In this document: positions 1 through 28,991 of the stretch, in pieces
Position numbering within the stretch: the stretch's first letter is position 1
Layout of the letters: every line of letters begins with the position of its first letter
Source of the DNA: Vermamoeba vermiformis
Lineage: Eukaryota
DNA length: 28,991 nucleotides
Direction of reading: 5' to 3'
Assembly: GCA_045837725.1 (NCBI GenBank)
Contig: JBEWZL010000309.1
Coordinates: 62,001 to 90,991 of the forward strand
Made by a program: the position numbers and the translations under genes
Notes under the pieces: model-generated
The model's database searches: none
What the model was told of the DNA's origin: nothing
What the model saw: the letters and a program-made list of their open reading frames with translations, nothing else

Positions 1-1266
1 GGTTAAAAAGAAATTCATAAAGAAAATTTAAAAGATACTGAAATTAACGGCTAAATAGCAGTCGGAGCGTAAAGTGACGGCGTACCTTTTGCATAATGGG
101 TCAGCGACTTAATTTATCTAGCAAACTTAAAATTTTAAGTTTAGGTGTAGCGAAAGCGAGTTTTAATTAGAGCGTTAAGTTAGATAAATTAGACCCGAAG
201 CCAAGTGATCTAACCATGAGCAGGTTGAAGGTAGCGTAATACACTATTGGAGGACCGAACCGACGTCTGTTGAAAGAGACGCGGATGACTTGTGGTTAGG
301 AGTGAAAGGCTAAACAAACTTGGTGATAGCTGGTTTTCTACGAAATCTATTTAGGTAGAGTGAGGTGTTATAAATTTAGTAGGTAGAGCACTAAATAAGC
401 TAGGGATTTCGATAATAATATTTTGAACTTATTGAAACTCCGAATGACTAAATTTTAAGCGCTTTAATCAGACTGCGAGTGCGAAGATTCGTTGGTCAAA
501 AGGGGAACAGCCCCTCTTGTAAGTTAAGGTCCGGAAGTTAATTCTAAATAATTAAGATTGCTCTTTTACGTTTAATGTTAGCAGGTTGGCTTAGAGGCAG
601 CCATCCTTTAAAGAAAGCGTAACAGCTCACTAACAATTTGTTTTAGAGTTTCAACAATAATAGGTTTTATAGATTTACACCGAAACTACAGATTAATTTT
701 TTTGGTAGTAGAATGAACTGTACGCTTTGAAGTTAAAATGTAAGTTTTAATCGAGCCTTCTGTTTTAAGTATGCTGACATGAGTAGCGCAAATAATGTTT
801 TTAAAAATCATTATCACCGAATAACCAAAGTTTTCTTCGCTAGGTTCTACCACGAAGAGTTAGTCGGCCCCTAAGTATTAAATGATAATTTGATATAATG
901 GGTTTTGTGATTAATATTTACAAACTAGTTTTAGTGACGTAAGTCATTTTAAATAGAATTCCATTTAGATTTGGAATTCTATTTAAAATGACTTACTACA
1001 AAATAACTAAAACTTACTACTATTACATTAGTAGTTTTAACCGTACTGAAAACCGACACAGGTGGTTAAGTAGAGAATACTAAGGTGACTGAGAGAAGGG
1101 TATTGAAGGAACTCGGCAAAATGACTCTGTAACTTCGGGAGAAAGAGTACCTTTTTTACATGAAAGCTTTTTAGAGTAATATCTAAAGGTTTATACTAGT
1201 TAGAAAGGTGGCACAGAATAGGGGGTAGCGACTGTTTAATAAAAACACAGGACTCTGCTAAATCGT

Positions 1267-2330: not shown

Positions 2331-2407
2331 TAAGTTTATGAATAACGGGATTATAAATGTGGTGAAATGTACAGGTTATAATATAAAAATAACTAATATA
2401 AAATTTT

Positions 2408-3208
2408 ATGAAAAGACATTTATTCCATTTGGTTGATCGTAGTCCTTGACCTTTTTTAACAGCTTTTAGCTTGCTTTTTATGACTACAGGTACTGTTATG
2501 TATATGCACTTTTATTTATTCGGTGGTTACTTAGCAATGATTGGTTTTATAATGTTAGTAATAACTTTAGTGGCTTGGTGACGAGATGTTATTAGGGAGT
2601 CTACCTATTTAGGTTATCATTCAACTGCTGTTCAAAGAGGGTTGAAGATTGGTTTTATATTATTTATTGCTTCAGAAATTATGTTTTTCGCTGCCTTTTT
2701 TTGGGCATTTTTTCATTCTAGTTTGGTTCCTTCTATTTGAGTTGGTGCTGAATGACCTCCGGTTGGTTTATCTGTTTTTAGTCCATATGGTGTTCCACTT
2801 TTAAATACTTTAATTCTTTTAACTTCTGGTGCTTCGATTACTTGAGCCCATAGAGCTGTTTTAGGAAAGCTGTACGAATATGCTGTCGGGGGTTTTGTCG
2901 CTACTATTACTTTAGCAATTTTATTCATTTTAATGCAGCTTCAAGAGTATGTTTCTGCTCCATTCGGTATTTCTGATGGTGTGTATGGTTCAGCGTTCTA
3001 TATGCTTACAGGTTTGCACGGCCTTCATGTAATTGTGGGTACGATTTTCTTGATTGTTTGTTTTATAAGATTTATGCAGAAACATCTTACTCCTGGCCAC
3101 CATTTAGGTTTTGAGTTTGCTGCTTGATACTGACACTTTGTGGACGTAGTTTGACTTTTCCTTTACTTTTCTGTTTATTGTTGAGGTAATTGAATTGTAA
3201 TAAGTTAA
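2408..3208 (+). CDS. cox3: Cytochrome c oxidase subunit 3 (266 aa, code 4)
   Basis: Starts [15 protein letters not shown]; contains [24 protein letters not shown] and AAWYWHFVDVVW. TGA falls at conserved Trp positions. ATG 2408, TAA 3206-3208. Confidence 0.97.
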
Positions 3209-3227
3209 TCTCTATTAAGTCAGAAAA

Positions 3228-3300
3228 GGGGTTGTAGCTCAATTGGGAGAGCGGTTGTTTTGCATGTAAAAGGTTGCAGGTTCAAGTCCTGTCAACTCCA
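3228..3300 (+). tRNA. trnA: tRNA-Ala(UGC)
   Basis: Acceptor GGGGTTG/CAACTCC with the G3:U70 Ala identity pair; anticodon loop tt-tgc-at; T-loop ttcaagt. Confidence 0.93.
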
Positions 3301-3319
3301 GTCGGTTGCTTACCATAAT

Positions 3320-3406
3320 GAGGAAATGGCCGAGCGGTTTAAGGCGGTTCTTTGCTAAGGAACTTTGCGGTCTCCCGCATCGTGGGTTCAAATCCCACTT
3401 TCCTTG
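3320..3406 (+). tRNA. trnS: tRNA-Ser(GCU)
   Basis: Acceptor GAGGAAA/TTTCCTT, discriminator G; anticodon arm gttct-tt-gct-aa-ggaac; long variable arm tgcgg-tctc-ccgca. Confidence 0.94.
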
Positions 3407-3408
3407 CC

Positions 3409-3480
3409 GTTCGAGTAGCTCAGTGGTAGAGCGAATGACTGAAAATCATTAGGTCGGTGGTTCGATTCCACTCTCGGACA
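3409..3480 (+). tRNA. trnF: tRNA-Phe(GAA)
   Basis: Acceptor GTTCGAG/CTCGGAC; anticodon arm aatga-ct-gaa-aa-tcatt; T-loop ttcgatt. Confidence 0.95.
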
Positions 3481-3510
3481 GCAATAGGTGGTTATGCGCC
3501 CGCCTATTGC
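3481..3510. other. GC-rich stem-loop directly after trnF
   Basis: gcaataggtgg / ccgcctattgc gives an 11-bp stem with one G-U pair and an 8-nt loop. Confidence 0.7.
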
Positions 3511-3512
3511 CG

Positions 3513-3713
3513 CATCCGGAACAAGCAGGCTACTGCTTGGTATGTGTTGTGTTAAGTGCTCGTGCGTCAGGGTTGGCAGGGTGTAGCGGAATTGGCTAAC
3601 GCGCTGGTTTTGGGTACCAGAAATTGCGGGTTCAAGTCCCGCCGCCCTGCCAACCCTGACGCACGAGCACTTAACACAACACATACCAAGCAGTAGCCTG
3701 CTTGTTCCGGATG
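3513..3713. repeat. Perfect 64-bp inverted repeat pair (3513-3576 / 3650-3713) flanking trnP
   Basis: catccggaacaagcagg...gtcagggttgg is the exact reverse complement of ccaaccctgac...cctgcttgttccggatg, and pairing runs on into the tRNA acceptor stem. Confidence 0.97.
3577..3650 (+). tRNA. trnP: tRNA-Pro(UGG)
   Basis: Acceptor CAGGGTG/CGCCCTG; anticodon arm ctggt-tt-tgg-gt-accag; T-arm gcggg-ttcaagt-cccgc. Confidence 0.93.
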
Positions 3714-3812
3714 TGTTTAAGATGCGCTTTAGAAGTTTATAAAACATTTTTGAGGCTAAGTCGTATGCGGTATCGACTTTATTTAATAAAAATAAAAATA
3801 AAATAAAAATAT

Positions 3813-5489
3813 ATGCCTTTGGTTGTTTTATCTTCTGCCTTATTGGTTCTTTTAATTGCTCAACCTGAGCTTTCTTTTTTTTCTGATTTATTTTTTTATG
3901 ATTTTACCTTAGAAGTTTTACATTCTATGTTTTTCTGATTTTTTAATAATTTTGGTTCTACTTATAGTTATTCCTTTAATTCAGATTTTGGGTTTCAAAA
4001 TCTAAGCTTTATGAAGTTAGATTATAATTATAATTATAGAACATATTTTAGCCAGACCTATTTGCACGCTGCTTATAATAAACACATGAAACCATATAGA
4101 AATCTGCTTAATGTAGATCGAATGTTTGGTGATTATAATGTTCGTACTTACGGAAAATCGAAAAAACATGCGTGAGCTATGAAGCATACGCGTATTTTTT
4201 TATTGCTCTATTCACATACTCTTGAATGCTATGCCTTTAGTCCTAAGCTTATGTCTTCCTCTTTTGTAATGTTTTATTTTAAGCGACATCATTTTTATTC
4301 TACTCTGGAGATGTTTTATGCTTCGATTTATTTAGGTATGATTTATTTTTTTTCGTTTACTTATACTCGTATGATAGAGGATGGTTCCTTAAATAGACGA
4401 GAAACTGAGGAGATTGATGAGGAGGAAGCTCAAAATCATTGATATTTTTTTCGTGAAGATAGACGTGGTGTTATTGAGCCGTCTATCGAAGATAATGAAG
4501 AGGTGAATTTCGCTTATCCGCAACATCCTGTTGAATGAGATGACAATGGGCATTTTTATCGTTGAGAAATTTATTTTTTTATGTTTCTGTTTTCTTTTTT
4601 AATTTGTTGGGGTGTCTCTCAGTCTGCTGCCTCCATGTTTTATTATGATCAATTTATAGACTTACACTTTATGGGCTGAGCTACGACTTTTGGTTTTATT
4701 TTTATATTTTGACGTATATTCTTTTTAGTTCAGTTTTTTACATATTTTAACAGATTTAATATTCGGCGTTTTTTATATTCAAAAATAGTTTTGCCTATTT
4801 TTAATGTCACTTTAGTTTTTATATTTAAGCTATTTCATGCGCACCTATGAGCTTTTTTTTATGCCACTTTAGCTCGTGTTGTAAAAATTTCAGATTTAGT
4901 ATCAACAGGTCAGTTTAACTTTGAGATGAATTTATATAAAGCTTCTTTAAAGGAGACTTCAAAGAATTTATTAGTGAAATTTTATCGTTATATATATTCC
5001 TCTTTTCAAAAAAATTTAAATTTTTTTGAAAAGAGGAATATATATGATTTTTTGTTATCTTCTAATTTAACTTTTACTTATAACAGTAAGAAAACTGTTG
5101 ATAAAATTTTTTACTATATTTATCAAAAGGACAGGGTTTTTTCTAACATATTTTCCATTACATCTTCCTATATTGATAATTATCGCCACCATAATGGCTT
5201 TTTTTTCCCTAAAAATATGTACTTAACTACAAATAAGTTGTCTTTTTTTTCTGCTTCTATTTTACCACCACCTTTTCCATTGTATCTAGATTATTTTAAT
5301 GTAAACGATTTGCCGATATGGGGTGCTGATTTTTTTTTTAGTTTAAACCAAAATGTTTTTGGAGTTGCTGAAGCGAGTGAAAACTGGTTTTTTTCGCGAC
5401 AATATAACACTCATTTTAATGTTTTGAATTCAAAGAGTCCTACAAAGAGGGTTAATAATAATAATAGTAATAATAATTTTTTATGTTAG
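3813..5489 (+). CDS. orf558, unidentified putative membrane protein
   Basis: Continuous frame in code 4 from ATG 3813 to TAG 5487-5489, read codon by codon between the supplied fragments 4179 and 4926. Hydrophobic segments flank an acidic loop (RRETEEIDEEEAQNHW...IEDNEEV). Confidence 0.85.
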
Positions 5490-8216
5490 TTTTTAGGTTA
5501 TTTATTTTATTTTTTAAAATTATTTTCTTTTCTTTTCTTTTGATTGTGAGGTATTTTCTTTTATTTTTGTTTAAATTATTTTATTTTTTAGTTTTTTTAC
5601 CTATTTACATCGTTTTTCTTTTTAAGTCTGTTTTTTTACTTTCGTTGTTTCTTTTTCGGAGTATCTTTGTTGCTTTGTTTTATAAGTTTTTGGGGTTTTG
5701 ATCTTATATAAAAGTAGCTCATATAATTGAACCATATGCTCAATTGGTGTATCATTTTGGTACTTTAAAAGTAATAAAAGAGCGTTTGATGCGCCGTTAT
5801 TACTTTTATAGACGGTCTTATTATGTATGTGGTTATTCGGTCAAATTTTTGATCAAAGCGATCCTAGCGGTTGAACCGAACGCTTTATTAATAAAGCGTT
5901 CGGTTCAACCGCTAGGATCGCTTTGATCAAAAATTTGAAACTTACCATCTTCACCTACGCGGGTTGGTCATAGGTTTCGTATTGGGCGCAGGTTAATAAA
6001 ATTTTTTTTGGGTATTGTAACACTTTTTTATCCTATTCAACTTTTATTGAAATTCGGTCTTTGGTATATCACTGGTTATTTGGTCTCTTTATTGAGATTT
6101 TTACGTCGTAAAAAAATTATAAAGACTAAAAAGCAGATAAAATTAATTTTAAGAATGATAATTTGAATAAAGTTACTTTTTGTTTGAAGTGACTTACCTT
6201 TTGTTTTGATTTTTAAACCTGGTATTTCGAAAAAATATCCTCAATTTGAGGATATTCAACCCGATACTCGCGTTATTAAGCATGAAGTTTGACAATTTGC
6301 TCTATTGAGGGATTGTTATTTTGATTACGAAGATGTTTTAAATGGTTATTATATATTTCATATAGTACGGCCATTTAGTAGAGTTTTTTTTAATTTAATT
6401 ATTTTTAGTTTTGTTTTGATTTATTTTATAATAATAAATTTTTTATATATTTTACAATTTTTTTATTTACTATTTTATGTACCCTTTAAGTTTATTTACA
6501 TTTATTCTTTATTAACTGCAGGTATTTTGCTTTTAAAACTGGTTTTAGTTCTTGCTTACTTAGTTCCGATTGTTTATATTCTTGCAGTTTTATTATTATC
6601 TTACTTTTTATACCGTTTTGTATTAATTAAATATTATTATTTTTATTCTCAAAAATATTTAGCTATTTTTCAGTATTTTATTTTTTTTAAAACCCCCAAC
6701 CTTTCATCAATTATCGGTCGCTTTTATTTGCTTTTTTATTATGTTGTTTTTAAGCTTAGATCATTAAATTATTTAGTTTTTTCTAATATTGAAGATTTTT
6801 TTTCTATAAAAAGATTATTTCGTTTTAATTCAAACTTAAGATCGATTTTAAACTACTTTTTTGGTGTAAACCCTCATTATGCTAATTTGTTATATTATAA
6901 TACCTCTTATATTTTTAGAAGAGTACGACCATATTTTTTAAGATTTAATAATGTTCAATTTATTCCTTACTTTTTTAAAACTCAAAAAGCTTCTCGAATT
7001 ACGCCTGACCAAATTAAGTCTTTTTTAAAAATCGGCTTAAATAGCAAATACCCTATGTACTATTTTGAGAGACTTTTTGATTTGGAATATTCAAGATTGG
7101 AGCTTGAATACGAGTTGCCTTATTATTGATCATTTGTTCGGCAAGCACATTCCTTAAACCAAGGGTTATTACACCCTAAATTTCATGTTTATGGTTTTTT
7201 TAACTTTTTAAAGTTCTATTGGAATTATTTTAGTTTTTTAAATACTAATACTATACTTGATACAAGTTCAATATACGCTCACGACTTTATACAATTATTT
7301 AATTCTTCGGCATCTCAGATTTTTTCTCTTTTAGTTAATGACTTTATTGAATTGTTTAAGATTAAGAAGTTTAAATTGTATACTTCTACAGCAGTTACTG
7401 GTTTTCTAAATAATTCGCAGTATTTCAAATTATCATCGTTAAGCGCTTCTACGCAATGGCATTTAATCCATGTTAAGTATTATGATAAATTGCTTCATTT
7501 TTTTTGAGATTATTATGATGCATTGTTGATTCGTGTAGTTTACTACTACTATTCTGTTCTTGCTACCCCCAACGCTGTTAAAATACATTCTTTTTTTAAT
7601 GATTACGCTGAAAAAGCGCGCCATTTGGTTGGGTGATATGTCTTTGCGTTTTATGAGCGTATGATGGGAAAACTTTTTTTAAATGTAAATAAATTTGAAG
7701 ACTATTACGATGTCAACTTTGATAAGTCCATCGACTTATATAATTCTTATTTAATACATTTTAAAAAATTTCTTGGCGTTGATTCTTTTAACTCTCTTTT
7801 TAGGAAGCGATTTGAGGTACAAAAACAGAGCTTTGAAGAAGAAATTTCAGATGATGTAGAAAAATCAGTTCGTCTTATGAACTTTGAACAAAAACTTAAT
7901 GCTCAACGAAAAAAAAATTATAATGATACCATGTCAGACTTTTTTACTGGTTCCTTTTCTTTTTTTGGTGGTTTTTACACATTTTTTCGTACAAATGTTT
8001 TTGAATTTATGACGGTACTTTATGTGCGTTGACGTGAGTATATTCATACTTCTATAAGTAGGTGGTCAAGGTCTAAAAAGGTTTTTGTTTTTTTAATTTA
8101 CTTTTTTAAAACATTTTTTGTGCTTTGGATTTGTATATTTATGATGATTGTTCTTTTTTCTCTTTTTTTGATAAAAGAGTTTATAATAAAAATAATAAAA
8201 AAAATTAAAAAAATAT

Positions 8217-8224
<8 letters not shown>
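5483..8224 (+). CDS. orf913, unidentified F/Y/L-rich putative membrane protein
   Basis: Supplied fragments 5483, 5744, 6305 and 7661 share one frame and are separated only by TGA. ATG 5483 overlaps the orf558 stop; ends TAA 8222-8224. Confidence 0.85.
5841..5938. repeat. Perfect 98-bp palindrome (two 49-bp arms, no spacer) inside orf913
   Basis: tcaaatttttgatcaaagcgatcctagcggttgaaccgaacgctttatt | aataaagcgttcggttcaaccgctaggatcgctttgatcaaaaatttga. Confidence 0.97.
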
Positions 8225-12735
<4,511 letters not shown>

Positions 12736-15499: not shown

Positions 15500-15573
15500 G
15501 AGCCCGTAGTTTAAATGGTTAAAATTCGCCGCTCATAACGGTTGCGATGAAGGTTCAAATCCTTCCGGGCTTA
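15500..15573 (+). tRNA. trnI: tRNA(CAU), probably Ile (lysidine-type trnI(cau)), copy 1
   Basis: Acceptor GAGCCCG/CGGGCTT. The tagtttaaatggttaaaa...ccgctcataacggt pattern resembles mitochondrial trnI(cau) and lacks the initiator GGG/CCC anticodon stem. Ile versus Met is inferred. Confidence 0.8.
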
Positions 15574-15620: not shown

Positions 15621-17093
15621 ATGTTTTTTAATTCTATTACCTTTAAAGACTCGGCTACCCCCTTCGCTGAAGCTTTAGTTGAGTTACATCATGAAATTAT
15701 GTTTTATTTAGTTGTAATTGTTAGTGTTGTTATATTTATACTTATTAATGCTATAAATATAACTCGTGTTAGGGAGTCTTACTTTTATGTTAATATTTTT
15801 AGTAGCGTGGGGTTTTTAAAAGCCGCGCTTTTGAATACCATTTTTTTTCCAGCTTTTAATAAGTTTCTTTATTCTTCGTATTATTCTAGATTTTACTCGT
15901 GGATAATAAATACTTTAACTGATCTAGTTTACATTATCGCTACGAAAGGTTCCTCTTATCTTACTTATTTATTAAGGTTAATAATGTTTGTTAAATCTTT
16001 GTCTTTAAATTTTTTGTCAGTGTTTTCTAAACTTGAGTCTTTTGTAGCTAAACTCTTTGGTGATTATAGTAACTTAGGATACAAAAATTTGTTCCCTAAT
16101 AGTATTGTTTCTAATGGGTTCTTTTATAAAACTCGTAATTCATCTTCTTATTTAATGTATTTATCTAACATTATCTCTTATTTGTCTATAATTTCAATTT
16201 TCAACGACTTAGATTATAAAAATTTTTATAAAAATAGGGAATTCTTATTCACTCATTTCTATAATTTATCAAAAGAAAGTGCATACAAATTATCTTCTCG
16301 GTCCATTGTAAATAGCTTAGATTTAAATTCTCTAGAAAATCTTTATTCTTATAATAAAATACCTCAAATTGTAGAGCTAAGTTCTCATTTTTCAGTATTT
16401 TTTAGCTCTTTTTTAAAGAATAAATTTAATTTCAGCAATTCATTATATGTAAGTTCTTTTAATAGACTTTCTCCAGTTGATGTTGCAACCCCTCGTTCGC
16501 TTTATTCTTTTATAAATGCTCAATCTTATACTGTTCACAACACTAAGTTAGAGATTATATGAACCATTATTCCTACAATTATATTAATTTTTATTGCTGT
16601 TCCCTCATTTATATTGCTTTATTCTTTAGATGAAGTCATTAATCCGTCAATCACTTTAAAAGCAATTGGACATCAATGGTATTGATCGTACGAATACTCT
16701 GACTATACTGAAGAAAACTCGATAAATTTTGATAGTTACATGATTACAGAAAATGATTTGGAGTTAGGGCAGTTTAGATTACTTGAAGTAGATAATAGGG
16801 TAGTGCTTCCTATTAATACTCATATTAGGGTATTGATAACAGCGGGTGATGTTCTTCATTCTTGAGCTGTTCCTTCGATGAATGTTAAAGCTGATGCTGT
16901 ACCTGGTAGGTTGAATCAGTTAACTCTTTTTATTAAACGACCTGGGGTTTATTATGGTCAGTGTAGTGAGTTGTGTGGTGTTAATCATGCATTTATGCCT
17001 ATTGTTATTGAAGCTGTCTCTCTTTGAAATTACTCAAATTGATTATCTAGTCGTTTTTCAGAAGCGGGCGTCGAATTTGAGTTAGCTAACTAA
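15621..17093 (+). CDS. cox2: Cytochrome c oxidase subunit 2 (490 aa) with a large in-frame insertion between TM1 and TM2
   Basis: FKDSATP...[62 protein letters not shown] 17091-17093. Confidence 0.95.
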
Positions 17094-24444: not shown

Positions 24445-24518
24445 GAGCCCGTAGTTTAAATGGTTAAAATTCGCCGCTCATAACGGTTGCGATGAAGGTT
24501 CAAATCCTTCCGGGCTTA
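24445..24518 (+). tRNA. trnI: tRNA(CAU), probably Ile, copy 2 (identical to 15500-15573)
   Basis: Sequence identical to copy 1. Confidence 0.8.
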
Positions 24519-24797: not shown

Positions 24798-24870
24798 GCA
24801 TCTATAGCTTAATTGGTAGAGCAACACTCTTCGAAAGTGGAGGTTCCATGTTCAAGTCGTGGTAGGTGCG
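24798..24870 (+). tRNA. trnR: tRNA-Arg(UCG)
   Basis: Acceptor GCATCTA/TAGGTGC; anticodon arm cact-ct-tcg-aa-agtg; T-arm ccatg-ttcaagt-cgtgg. Confidence 0.9.
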
Positions 24871-27800
24871 TTTTTTGAAGCTTGTTTCCATTAGGGATAA
24901 TTTATGATCAGCATATGTTTCACATTGCTTTAGTGTTTTATTCCTTTCTATTTTATCTTTTTAGTTAAAGTAGTTATTATGGGAAAACTCATGTTCAAGT
25001 CGTGGTAGGTGCGTTTTTTGAAGCTTGTTTCCATTAGGGATAATTTATGATCAGCATATGTTTCACATTGCTTTAGTGTTTTATTCCTTTCTATTTTATC
25101 TTTTTAGTTAAAGTAGTTATTATGGGAAAACTCATGTTCAAGTCGTGGTAGGTGCGTTTTTTGAAGCTTGTTTCCATTAGGGATAATTTATGATCAGCAT
25201 ATGTTTCACATTGCTTTAGTGTTTTATTCCTTTCTATTTTATCTTTTTAGTTAAAGTAGTTATTATGGGAAAACTCATGTTCAAGTCGTGGTAGGTGCGT
25301 TTTTTGAAGCTTGTTTCCATTAGGGATAATTTATGATCAGCATATGTTTCACATTGCTTTAGTGTTTTATTCCTTTCTATTTTATCTTTTTAGTTAAAGT
25401 AGTTATTATGGGAAAACTCATGTTCAAGTCGTGGTAGGTGCGTTTTTTGAAGCTTGTTTCCATTAGGGATAATTTATGATCAGCATATGTTTCACATTGC
25501 TTTAGTGTTTTATTCCTTTCTATTTTATCTTTTTAGTTAAAGTAGTTATTATGGGAAAACTCATGTTCAAGTCGTGGTAGGTGCGTTTTTTGAAGCTTGT
25601 TTCCATTAGGGATAATTTATGATCAGCATATGTTTCACATTGCTTTAGTGTTTTATTCCTTTCTATTTTATCTTTTTAGTTAAAGTAGTTATTATGGGAA
25701 AACTCATGTTCAAGTCGTGGTAGGTGCGTTTTTTGAAGCTTGTTTCCATTAGGGATAATTTATGATCAGCATATGTTTCACATTGCTTTAGTGTTTTATT
25801 CCTTTCTATTTTATCTTTTTAGTTAAAGTAGTTATTATGGGAAAACTCATGTTCAAGTCGTGGTAGGTGCGTTTTTTGAAGCTTGTTTCCATTAGGGATA
25901 ATTTATGATCAGCATATGTTTCACATTGCTTTAGTGTTTTATTCCTTTCTATTTTATCTTTTTAGTTAAAGTAGTTATTATGGGAAAACTCATGTTCAAG
26001 TCGTGGTAGGTGCGTTTTTTGAAGCTTGTTTCCATTAGGGATAATTTATGATCAGCATATGTTTCACATTGCTTTAGTGTTTTATTCCTTTCTATTTTAT
26101 CTTTTTAGTTAAAGTAGTTATTATGGGAAAACTCATGTTCAAGTCGTGGTAGGTGCGTTTTTTGAAGCTTGTTTCCATTAGGGATAATTTATGATCAGCA
26201 TATGTTTCACATTGCTTTAGTGTTTTATTCCTTTCTATTTTATCTTTTTAGTTAAAGTAGTTATTATGGGAAAACTCATGTTCAAGTCGTGGTAGGTGCG
26301 TTTTTTGAAGCTTGTTTCCATTAGGGATAATTTATGATCAGCATATGTTTCACATTGCTTTAGTGTTTTATTCCTTTCTATTTTATCTTTTTAGTTAAAG
26401 TAGTTATTATGGGAAAACTCATGTTCAAGTCGTGGTAGGTGCGTTTTTTGAAGCTTGTTTCCATTAGGGATAATTTATGATCAGCATATGTTTCACATTG
26501 CTTTAGTGTTTTATTCCTTTCTATTTTATCTTTTTAGTTAAAGTAGTTATTATGGGAAAACTCATGTTCAAGTCGTGGTAGGTGCGTTTTTTGAAGCTTG
26601 TTTCCATTAGGGATAATTTATGATCAGCATATGTTTCACATTGCTTTAGTGTTTTATTCCTTTCTATTTTATCTTTTTAGTTAAAGTAGTTATTATGGGA
26701 AAACTCATGTTCAAGTCGTGGTAGGTGCGTTTTTTGAAGCTTGTTTCCATTAGGGATAATTTATGATCAGCATATGTTTCACATTGCTTTAGTGTTTTAT
26801 TCCTTTCTATTTTATCTTTTTAGTTAAAGTAGTTATTATGGGAAAACTCATGTTCAAGTCGTGGTAGGTGCGTTTTTTGAAGCTTGTTTCCATTAGGGAT
26901 AATTTATGATCAGCATATGTTTCACATTGCTTTAGTGTTTTATTCCTTTCTATTTTATCTTTTTAGTTAAAGTAGTTATTATGGGAAAACTCATGTTCAA
27001 GTCGTGGTAGGTGCGTTTTTTGAAGCTTGTTTCCATTAGGGATAATTTATGATCAGCATATGTTTCACATTGCTTTAGTGTTTTATTCCTTTCTATTTTA
27101 TCTTTTTAGTTAAAGTAGTTATTATGGGAAAACTCATGTTCAAGTCGTGGTAGGTGCGTTTTTTGAAGCTTGTTTCCATTAGGGATAATTTATGATCAGC
27201 ATATGTTTCACATTGCTTTAGTGTTTTATTCCTTTCTATTTTATCTTTTTAGTTAAAGTAGTTATTATGGGAAAACTCATGTTCAAGTCGTGGTAGGTGC
27301 GTTTTTTGAAGCTTGTTTCCATTAGGGATAATTTATGATCAGCATATGTTTCACATTGCTTTAGTGTTTTATTCCTTTCTATTTTATCTTTTTAGTTAAA
27401 GTAGTTATTATGGGAAAACTCATGTTCAAGTCGTGGTAGGTGCGTTTTTTGAAGCTTGTTTCCATTAGGGATAATTTATGATCAGCATATGTTTCACATT
27501 GCTTTAGTGTTTTATTCCTTTCTATTTTATCTTTTTAGTTAAAGTAGTTATTATGGGAAAACTCATGTTCAAGTCGTGGTAGGTGCGTTTTTTGAAGCTT
27601 GTTTCCATTAGGGATAATTTATGATCAGCATATGTTTCACATTGCTTTAGTGTTTTATTCCTTTCTATTTTATCTTTTTAGTTAAAGTAGTTATTATGGG
27701 AAAACTCATGTTCAAGTCGTGGTAGGTGCGTTTTTTGAAGCTTGTTTCCATTAGGGATAATTTATGATCAGCATATGTTTCACATTGCTTTAGTGTTTTA

Positions 27801-28991
27801 TTCCTTTCTATTTTATCTTTTTAGTTAAAGTAGTTATTATGGGAAAACTCATGTTCAAGTCGTGGTAGGTGCGTTTTTTGAAGCTTGTTTCCATTAGGGA
27901 TAATTTATGATCAGCATATGTTTCACATTGCTTTAGTGTTTTATTCCTTTCTATTTTATCTTTTTAGTTAAAGTAGTTATTATGGGAAAACTCATGTTCA
28001 AGTCGTGGTAGGTGCGTTTTTTGAAGCTTGTTTCCATTAGGGATAATTTATGATCAGCATATGTTTCACATTGCTTTAGTGTTTTATTCCTTTCTATTTT
28101 ATCTTTTTAGTTAAAGTAGTTATTATGGGAAAACTCATGTTCAAGTCGTGGTAGGTGCGTTTTTTGAAGCTTGTTTCCATTAGGGATAATTTATGATCAG
28201 CATATGTTTCACATTGCTTTAGTGTTTTATTCCTTTCTATTTTATCTTTTTAGTTAAAGTAGTTATTATGGGAAAACTCATGTTCAAGTCGTGGTAGGTG
28301 CGTTTTTTGAAGCTTGTTTCCATTAGGGATAATTTATGATCAGCATATGTTTCACATTGCTTTAGTGTTTTATTCCTTTCTATTTTATCTTTTTAGTTAA
28401 AGTAGTTATTATGGGAAAACTCATGTTCAAGTCGTGGTAGGTGCGTTTTTTGAAGCTTGTTTCCATTAGGGATAATTTATGATCAGCATATGTTTCACAT
28501 TGCTTTAGTGTTTTATTCCTTTCTATTTTATCTTTTTAGTTAAAGTAGTTATTATGGGAAAACTCATGTTCAAGTCGTGGTAGGTGCGTTTTTTGAAGCT
28601 TGTTTCCATTAGGGATAATTTATGATCAGCATATGTTTCACATTGCTTTAGTGTTTTATTCCTTTCTATTTTATCTTTTTAGTTAAAGTAGTTATTATGG
28701 GAAAACTCATGTTCAAGTCGTGGTAGGTGCGTTTTTTGAAGCTTGTTTCCATTAGGGATAATTTATGATCAGCATATGTTTCACATTGCTTTAGTGTTTT
28801 ATTCCTTTCTATTTTATCTTTTTAGTTAAAGTAGTTATTATGGGAAAACTCATGTTCAAGTCGTGGTAGGTGCGTTTTTTGAAGCTTGTTTCCATTAGGG
28901 ATAATTTATGATCAGCATATGTTTCACATTGCTTTAGTGTTTTATTCCTTTCTATTTTATCTTTTTAGTTAAAGTAGTTATTATGGGAAAA
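24847..28991. repeat. Tandem array of about 29 apparently identical 143-bp units, truncated by the window end; each unit starts with the last 24 nt of trnR
   Basis: catgttcaagtcg recurs at 24847, 24990 and, on the same period, 27421 (24847+18x143). 4145 bp / 143 = 28.99 units. No variant units seen by eye. Confidence 0.98.

Follow-up and report, generated by a model that had tools for sequence, protein, structure and literature searches.

How does a mitochondrial tRNA gene come to lie at the tip of a perfect inverted repeat, and how is its product freed? The question is raised by trnP(ugg) of Vermamoeba vermiformis, the sole tRNA-Pro gene type of this mtDNA (ARAGORN, whole contig). The window, that is the whole stretch of DNA that was analysed, comprises the final 28,991 bases of contig JBEWZL010000309.1 (90,991 bp) and contains rnl, cox1-3, nad genes, rps16, rpl19, large unassigned ORFs and 10 tRNA genes, all on one strand and with TGA read as Trp. 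Its Cox3 clusters at 90% with Vermamoeba vermiformis Cox3 YP_003540842.1 and has 98% identity to a near-identical database copy; the window is therefore mtDNA of the V. vermiformis group. There are also lineages whose Cox3 has an identity of about 84% and 80%. The repeat is found in the gene run cox3-trnA-trnS-trnF-trnP (Table 1; positions are those of the window unless the contig is named), and the sequence between trnF and the left arm has a GC content of 59% (3481-3512). Further along the window are three large tandem ORFs (558, 913 and 961 aa; 3813-11102) without a Pfam match, a Cox2 of 490 aa with a long insertion ahead of its second transmembrane segment (15621-17093), and two identical trnM(cau) genes 9 kb apart (15500-15573 and 24445-24518).

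Table 1. Features of the trnP locus and sister repeats in the window.
Feature	Position	Strand	Basis or remark
Sister perfect repeat, 25-bp arms, inside rnl	939..996		
trnF(gaa)	3409..3480	+	ARAGORN and Rfam tRNA, 73 bits; upstream neighbour of trnP
GC-rich hairpin, 11 bp, one G.U pair, immediately outside left arm	3481..3510	+	Fold
Left arm, the 5' leader of trnP	3513..3576	+	Exact complement of right arm
Nested 7-bp hairpin in left arm	3522..3539	+	Mirror at 3687-3704
Outer acceptor-like word	3567..3573	+	Pairs with 3653-3659; that register has U6-A67 and A73
trnP(ugg), intact cloverleaf, C1-G72, discriminator C73 paired with G-1	3577..3650	+	Rfam 61.5 bits full-length, ARAGORN
Right arm, discriminator and 3' trailer	3650..3713	+	Pairing stops abruptly at outer end 3513/3713
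AT-rich spacer, 23% GC, two weak hairpins, precedes 558-aa ORF (start 3813)	3714..3812	+	
Sister perfect palindrome, 28-bp arms, no spacer, phase 1, in 558-aa ORF	4990..5045		
Sister perfect palindrome, 49-bp arms, no spacer, phase 1, in 913-aa ORF	5841..5938		

A preliminary description of the locus had reported exact reverse complementarity between 3513-3576 and 3650-3713, with pairing continuing into the acceptor stem as a helix of ~71 bp, and both statements are borne out in the assembly. Watson-Crick pairing includes acceptor pairs 1-5 and reaches 3581 and 3645, giving perfect arms of 69 bp (3513-3581 and 3645-3713); with U6.G67 and G7-C66 the helix comes to 71 bp. The description was also accurate in its GC-rich arms (53% GC vs 31% in the window), its nested hairpin, which folds at -9.6 kcal/mol, its C after G72 (position 3650), and its accctga word (3653-3659) and doubled cagggt (3568-3573 and 3577-3582). 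Since the inversion by itself produces the hairpin of the second arm and the mirrored motif, each counts as one observation, not two. The outer acceptor-like word may be the scar of an earlier 9-nt slip. No Rfam family matched the left arm at threshold, and the Rfam score of the tRNA itself compares with 43.5-73 bits for the other tRNAs listed.

Such a structure is unlikely by chance, with a fold z of -19.8 and none of 100 shuffles as good. Acceptor-stem extension was 0-3 bp in the other 24 of the 25 tRNA genes scored in this mtDNA, and across 80 unrelated cox3 loci it was 0-5 bp in all of the 132 tRNA genes scored. In folding snapshots computed in silico, the extension starts once the trailer emerges and attains full length at 3713, with weak local hairpins displaced on the way.

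The repeat is confirmed as real in the assembly and is probably real in the cell. Its locus is present twice in the contig, in identical copies with trnP in the same orientation, because the contig carries a 35,657-bp inverted duplication; the two copies are non-independent evidence. This duplication is perfect (contig 1-35657 and 53970-89626), and its inner end, inside cob, joins a 17-bp tandem array via a common word of ~11 bases. The published order trnR-rrn5-like-atp1 implies a circle of ~51 kb, which leaves two readings of the duplication: a linear molecule bearing giant terminal repeats, or an artefact of assembly. At the window's end (24847-28991) there are 29 exact copies of a 143-bp unit, with 19 copies at the opposite contig end. 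Every unit opens within the T arm of trnR(ucg) and thereby duplicates the 3' end of that tRNA; the array is telomere-like or of the control-region type.

That the trnP repeat was itself produced by fold-back during assembly or library construction is quite improbable. The large duplication on the same contig, possibly artefactual too, and the failure of searches to yield independent DNA for the trnP locus would fit such an origin. However, the inverted copy ends after 64 nt and unique collinear sequence then resumes, an independent GenBank record and proteins from JGI and ENA match the sister repeats described below, and hairworm repeats of this sort were proved real by nuclease enrichment (PMC6649704). 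The searches for a second source covered metagenomes (80 loci listed, Cox3 identity at most 61%) and genomes (80 loci listed, at most 54%), in scans that may omit near-identical records. Exact patterns of the locus had no match in viral and genome contigs, and a viral protein scan gave two weak loci. Chance ORFs across the arms, used as markers of other assemblies, were found in none of 26 candidates from a protein collection and in none of 2 and none of 7 exact look-ups. In a run index, 17 of the 24 runs listed hold at least half of the sequence words of 2400-5400, of which only ~2% test the second arm; these matches show that the lineage is widespread.

The preliminary description had also offered a palindromic mobile element as the source of the repeat. 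An element of this type, or a MITE, enclosing or having captured trnP would account for perfect terminal inverted repeats that are GC-rich and end abruptly, but this origin is already largely refuted and must be regarded as highly improbable. The arm is confined to this one locus, with no dispersed copy elsewhere in the 43-Mb assembly, it is unrelated to the arms of the other repeats, and the flanks at 3512 and 3714 contain no direct repeat that could represent a target-site duplication. Across the rest of the mtDNA, the similarity of the arm was not above that of shuffles (score 32 vs mean 34), and the arm has one 9-mer and no 10-mer in common with the rest of the window. Among the best 10 of 831 and the best 10 of 336 records, plasmid and phage matches cover parts of the tRNA, not the arms.

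Two further candidates were tried and rejected. A 5S-like RNA in the arms was dismissed, since a search of 3200-3830 with 5S families gave no match up to E 10 and the published locus is elsewhere: the Amoebozoan mitochondrial 5S-like gene sits in the order trnR, rrn5-like, atp1 (supplement of PMC4267664). The 96-nt trnF-trnP spacer was considered as a relic tRNA or other known RNA, and no Rfam match exceeded chance. Its fold z is only -1.6, it has no similarity to the rest of the mtDNA, and the two 10-mers that it has in common with trnH are at chance level (E 2.7).

The trnP repeat has company in this mtDNA. The 50,925-bp monomer contains 21 perfect inverted repeats with arms of at least 15 bp and 17 with arms of 20-69 bp, the one around trnP being the longest of the 17; in five block shuffles of the monomer the longest perfect arm was 13 bp. 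Twelve of the 17 are inside ORFs, and eight of these are in one 830-aa ORF. Most sister repeats are without a loop. All 17 are mutually unrelated, their longest common word being an AT-rich 14 nt, with one 7-mer in common for the trnP arm. When mismatches were allowed, 12 of the 17 were still 100% paired and the others 87-98%. Arm identity is all-or-none and few repeats are decaying, as in palindromes of the Nematomorpha type. The ORF of 830 aa (contig 46600-49092), basic and unnamed, has perfect repeats of 21-47 bp and is a hotspot suited to the study of coding palindromes. A second non-coding case in a tRNA cluster is a 46-bp perfect AT-rich repeat between trnH and trnQ (contig 54373-54471).

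In Nematomorpha, mtDNA contains many long, perfect and unrelated inverted repeats inside ORFs, as it does in Vermamoeba (PMC6649704; PMC10380579). The hairworm repeats are common to lineages while their sequence changes in concert; an origin by template switching or conversion has been proposed for them, with no known function, and the paper leaves open by what mechanism perfect mitochondrial palindromes are made and maintained (PMC6649704). On the best reading, the Vermamoeba repeats match these self-maintaining palindromes. Unlike those of Nematomorpha, the longest Vermamoeba repeat is non-coding and GC-rich, and encloses a whole tRNA with the acceptor stem innermost. In hairworms, contact with repeats is marked for some tRNA genes, and the text examined mentions no enclosed tRNA (PMC6649704).

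The survey in that paper concerns coding sequences only, and the amoeba is unnamed in its main text, while Table S4 gives four coding-repeat rows for Hartmannella (Vermamoeba) vermiformis NC_013986 (PMC6649704). The matching of these rows to the present repeats used the size of the ORF, the phase and the geometry of the repeat rather than sequence, and the column meanings were inferred from a garbled header. The orf552 row (28/0/1, AT 79%) corresponds to 28/0 in phase 1 in the 558-aa ORF (AT 86%), and the orf901 row (52/0/1) to 49/0 in phase 1 in the 913-aa ORF. The orf184 row gives 32/10 vs 37/0 here, with an identical 74-bp span, in phase. The fourth row is one 58-bp repeat in orf819, an exact fit to none of the eight in the 830-aa ORF.

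Homologues of the coding repeats carry information on how such repeats change. For each aligned site it was asked if any back-translation of the homologue permits a perfect repeat, a test that shows compatibility and not the DNA itself. Three homologues of the 830-aa ORF were used (99, 66 and 60% identical; JGI and ENA assemblies), together with three of the 6 matches for a 187-aa ORF, the other three being left out as weak or repetitive. In P0141 (99% identical), six of six covered sites were compatible, one of them, with a 3-residue insertion, allowing arms of 50 nt. P0142 (66%) was compatible at three of four sites and P0143 (60%) at four of five, two of them with centres moved by 3-residue indels, while the 187-aa ORF homologues gave two of three. 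The incompatible aligned sites are thus three: one in P0142, one in P0143, and P0145. The longest compatible arms were 50, 49, 54 and 31 nt, whereas 25 shuffles of each reached at most 26, 23, 22 and 20. For four sites that align without gaps, the solutions with the fewest changes altered 3, 5, 5 and 1 paired positions on both arms, and the paired positions with a residue change in both codons numbered 2, 4, 4 and 0. Compatibility beyond shuffles and changes on both arms together suggest, at the protein level, that the coding repeats are old, real and kept perfect, with centres that appear to be shared and arms that appear to change in concert between lineages. A 20-bp repeat in nad9 has its segment nearly unchanged in three of four homologues, in an alignment too short for the test.

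Taken with the sister repeats, these data suggest that the trnP repeat represents, outside coding sequence, a process which acts genome-wide to make hairpins into long perfect palindromes and to keep them perfect, a reading to which a probability of about two in three is given. The best reading of the locus is as the most conspicuous product of the palindrome-making process known from hairworms; concerted evolution of the trnP arms would be an extrapolation from the coding repeats. The fold-back or template switch seeded by the acceptor stem, put forward in the preliminary description beside the mobile element, is supported by context, namely by 16 unrelated sister repeats and by homologues compatible with concerted change.

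In the proposed mechanism, the nascent sense strand would fold back at the acceptor stem during replication and prime on its own upstream sequence. From there it would copy 64 nt of leader, replacing the former discriminator and trailer, before it returned to its template, with G-1 templating C73 during the switch, and later switches or repair would convert mismatches between the arms. The repeat would then be a burden, not a device. Copying of the leader from the acceptor stem gives a seamless extension in which base 73 is the complement of base -1, as seen (G-1, C73). The sense DNA strand of trnP folds on the acceptor stem at -16 kcal/mol. RNA-gene hairpins are known to prime intrastrand template switches that copy the 5' side of the stem (PMC8794818); in such RNA hairpins an existing hairpin primes the switch, and the stem is extended or perfected. 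The published cases are short tracts in rRNA stems (PMC8794818), whereas in trnP 64 nt outside the mature RNA are concerned and an identity base is lost.

The polarity of the event is hinted at by the same base. A73 is present in three of three other tRNA-Pro genes scored, and C73 as the complement of G-1 would fit a new 3' arm. A weak hint in the same direction may come from the left arm, where 41 of 64 bases are G or T, a sense-strand bias with a likelihood ratio of 259 vs monomer composition and of 4-10 vs rRNA composition. The left arm is probably the original sequence and the right arm probably the copy. The high GC of the leader and of the adjacent upstream hairpin is left unexplained by the template-switch account, the trnP arms having 53% GC vs 5-39% in the sister repeats and 12-42% in most spacers. 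The unconverted U6.G67 pair counts against arm conversion.

An origin at the RNA level was also weighed, in which a Thg1-like 3'-5' polymerase adds bases 5' to a precursor that still has its trailer, the product then being copied back into mtDNA. The nucleus encodes a Thg1-family protein, and such a polymerase would yield exactly a seamless acceptor-stem extension. This route is nonetheless extremely improbable. The arm that it predicts to be new is the 5' one, but C73 and the base skew indicate a new 3' arm; it requires reverse transcription; it leaves 16 sister repeats without a tRNA unexplained; and the additions on record reach eight bases (PMC11404450).

An invertible switch, in which the tRNA core is turned round by recombination of one arm with the other so that trnP is toggled, would have at its disposal identical inverted arms of 69 bp that could recombine. 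It is very improbable in view of the same orientation in both contig copies, the flipped form, which would put the sole trnP on the strand opposite all neighbouring genes, and the sister repeats, most of which have no loop to flip.

Whatever its origin, the 71-bp helix would be expected to bury the RNase P and RNase Z sites. With two leader-RCCA pairs, E. coli RNase P already works more slowly (PMC9433436). PRORP3 depends on a leader that is single-stranded; four additional pairs impair it strongly, and a G-1:C73 pair moves its cleavage site one base upstream (PMC4797305). Long extensions require a bulge at -1, and RNase Z is inhibited when the trailer is paired (PMC8457004). Pairing of leader with trailer is also known from pre-tRNAs and mascRNA, where the acceptor stem is extended via leader, discriminator and trailer (PMC8457004, PMC9433436, PMC4797305), but the known extensions are of a few bp and need a bulge or melting, whereas that of trnP is 64 bp with no bulge. 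A genomic G-1 opposite C73, as in trnP, is found in bacterial-type tRNA-His; unlike there, the trnP pair is in a tRNA-Pro.

The stem could instead have been selected for processing, with leader-trailer pairing cut by a dsRNA nuclease, so that trnP is freed and the cox3-tRNA run is separated from the next mRNA. The model would be the RNase III stems of pre-rRNA, in which leader and trailer pair on purpose. Selected RNA stems usually accumulate G.U pairs and bulges, but neither occurs within the 64 bp, and just one of the 25 tRNA genes has such a stem. The arms are GC-rich like structural RNA, and the nuclear genome has six RNase III-domain matches at four loci. Short bulged leader-trailer pairing aids RNase P on mascRNA (PMC8457004), but the bulge at -1 that is required in the mascRNA and yeast cases is absent from trnP. 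Selection of the stem is accordingly considered unlikely, if less so than the other alternatives to the palindrome-making process. Nothing ties the nuclear RNase III domains or the Thg1-family gene to the trnP locus, and a dsRNA nuclease is one of several possible ways out for trnP. Searches for PRORP and SUV3_C gave no match, and their controls were also without a match.

The overwritten discriminator poses a second difficulty. The nuclear genome encodes an E-type and a P-type ProRS; the latter keeps the RPR motif and we infer that it is the mitochondrial enzyme. Among the P-type tRNA-Pro identity elements, G72 is present and A73 absent, the gene encoding C73 where the mature end may differ. 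The change A73C costs P-type ProRS 54-fold (PMC11229370), and C73 would appear to conflict with a nuclear P-type ProRS that retains the RPR motif. About 440 prolines are encoded in the long ORFs of the monomer. No tRNA genes for Gly, Val and Thr were found in the contig (ARAGORN), so tRNA import must exist.

Two putative outcomes were set against each other. In the first, a detour would yield a working mitochondrial tRNA-Pro: a 3' cut would be made downstream, the trailer would be trimmed by a helicase and exonuclease or by RNase III, and RNase P would then act, after which C73 would be trimmed and A73 added, or C73 tolerated. In the second, cytosolic tRNA-Pro would be imported and the mitochondrial gene would be largely idle. 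The detour is somewhat favoured over the idle gene, the 60/40 split being the author's estimate over these two outcomes. Template-independent 3' editing is known in animal mitochondria (PMC4284800). The more specific proposal, that the sole mitochondrial tRNA-Pro is freed from a bulge-free 71-bp helix by a non-standard route, meaning a dsRNA cut or helicase-driven removal of the trailer, and that the discriminator is then repaired from C to A, is tentative, with the odds against it. If it were true, a self-maintaining DNA palindrome would have obliged an amoebozoan mitochondrion to edit tRNA 3' ends, and the repeat-conversion machinery would be open to direct study in a culturable organism. 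If the tRNA is idle, the palindrome would have silenced a gene whose loss is covered by tRNA import, a less surprising outcome that would still be informative.

The palindrome-making process is already known from hairworms and is tabulated without comment for ORFs of this amoeba. What did not appear in the searches is a palindrome whose loop is the sole intact trnP gene with an overwritten identity base. No description was found of a tRNA enclosed in such a repeat in Vermamoeba, in a literature search that did not include two key papers about this mtDNA. Vermamoeba vermiformis is not among the entries in the supplement of PMC6030915, and the string 'palindrom' does not occur in PMC11702301. 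With at least 17 palindromes in an easily cultured amoeba, one of them around an intact tRNA gene, the mechanism would become testable, with polarity and conversion tracts to be read from a comparison of strains, and the trnP locus provides a natural extreme test of tRNA end processing and of tRNA-Pro identity.

Several observations concern the other tRNA genes. At acceptor positions 1-3 these genes show G.U pairs but no mismatch that would call for 5' editing. A tRNA with a CAU anticodon (contig 61469-61542) has a U7:C66 mismatch and C73. The tRNA for Lys is present only as CUU, and the only tRNA-Trp (contig 37972-38044) has a CCA anticodon although the ORFs read TGA as Trp.
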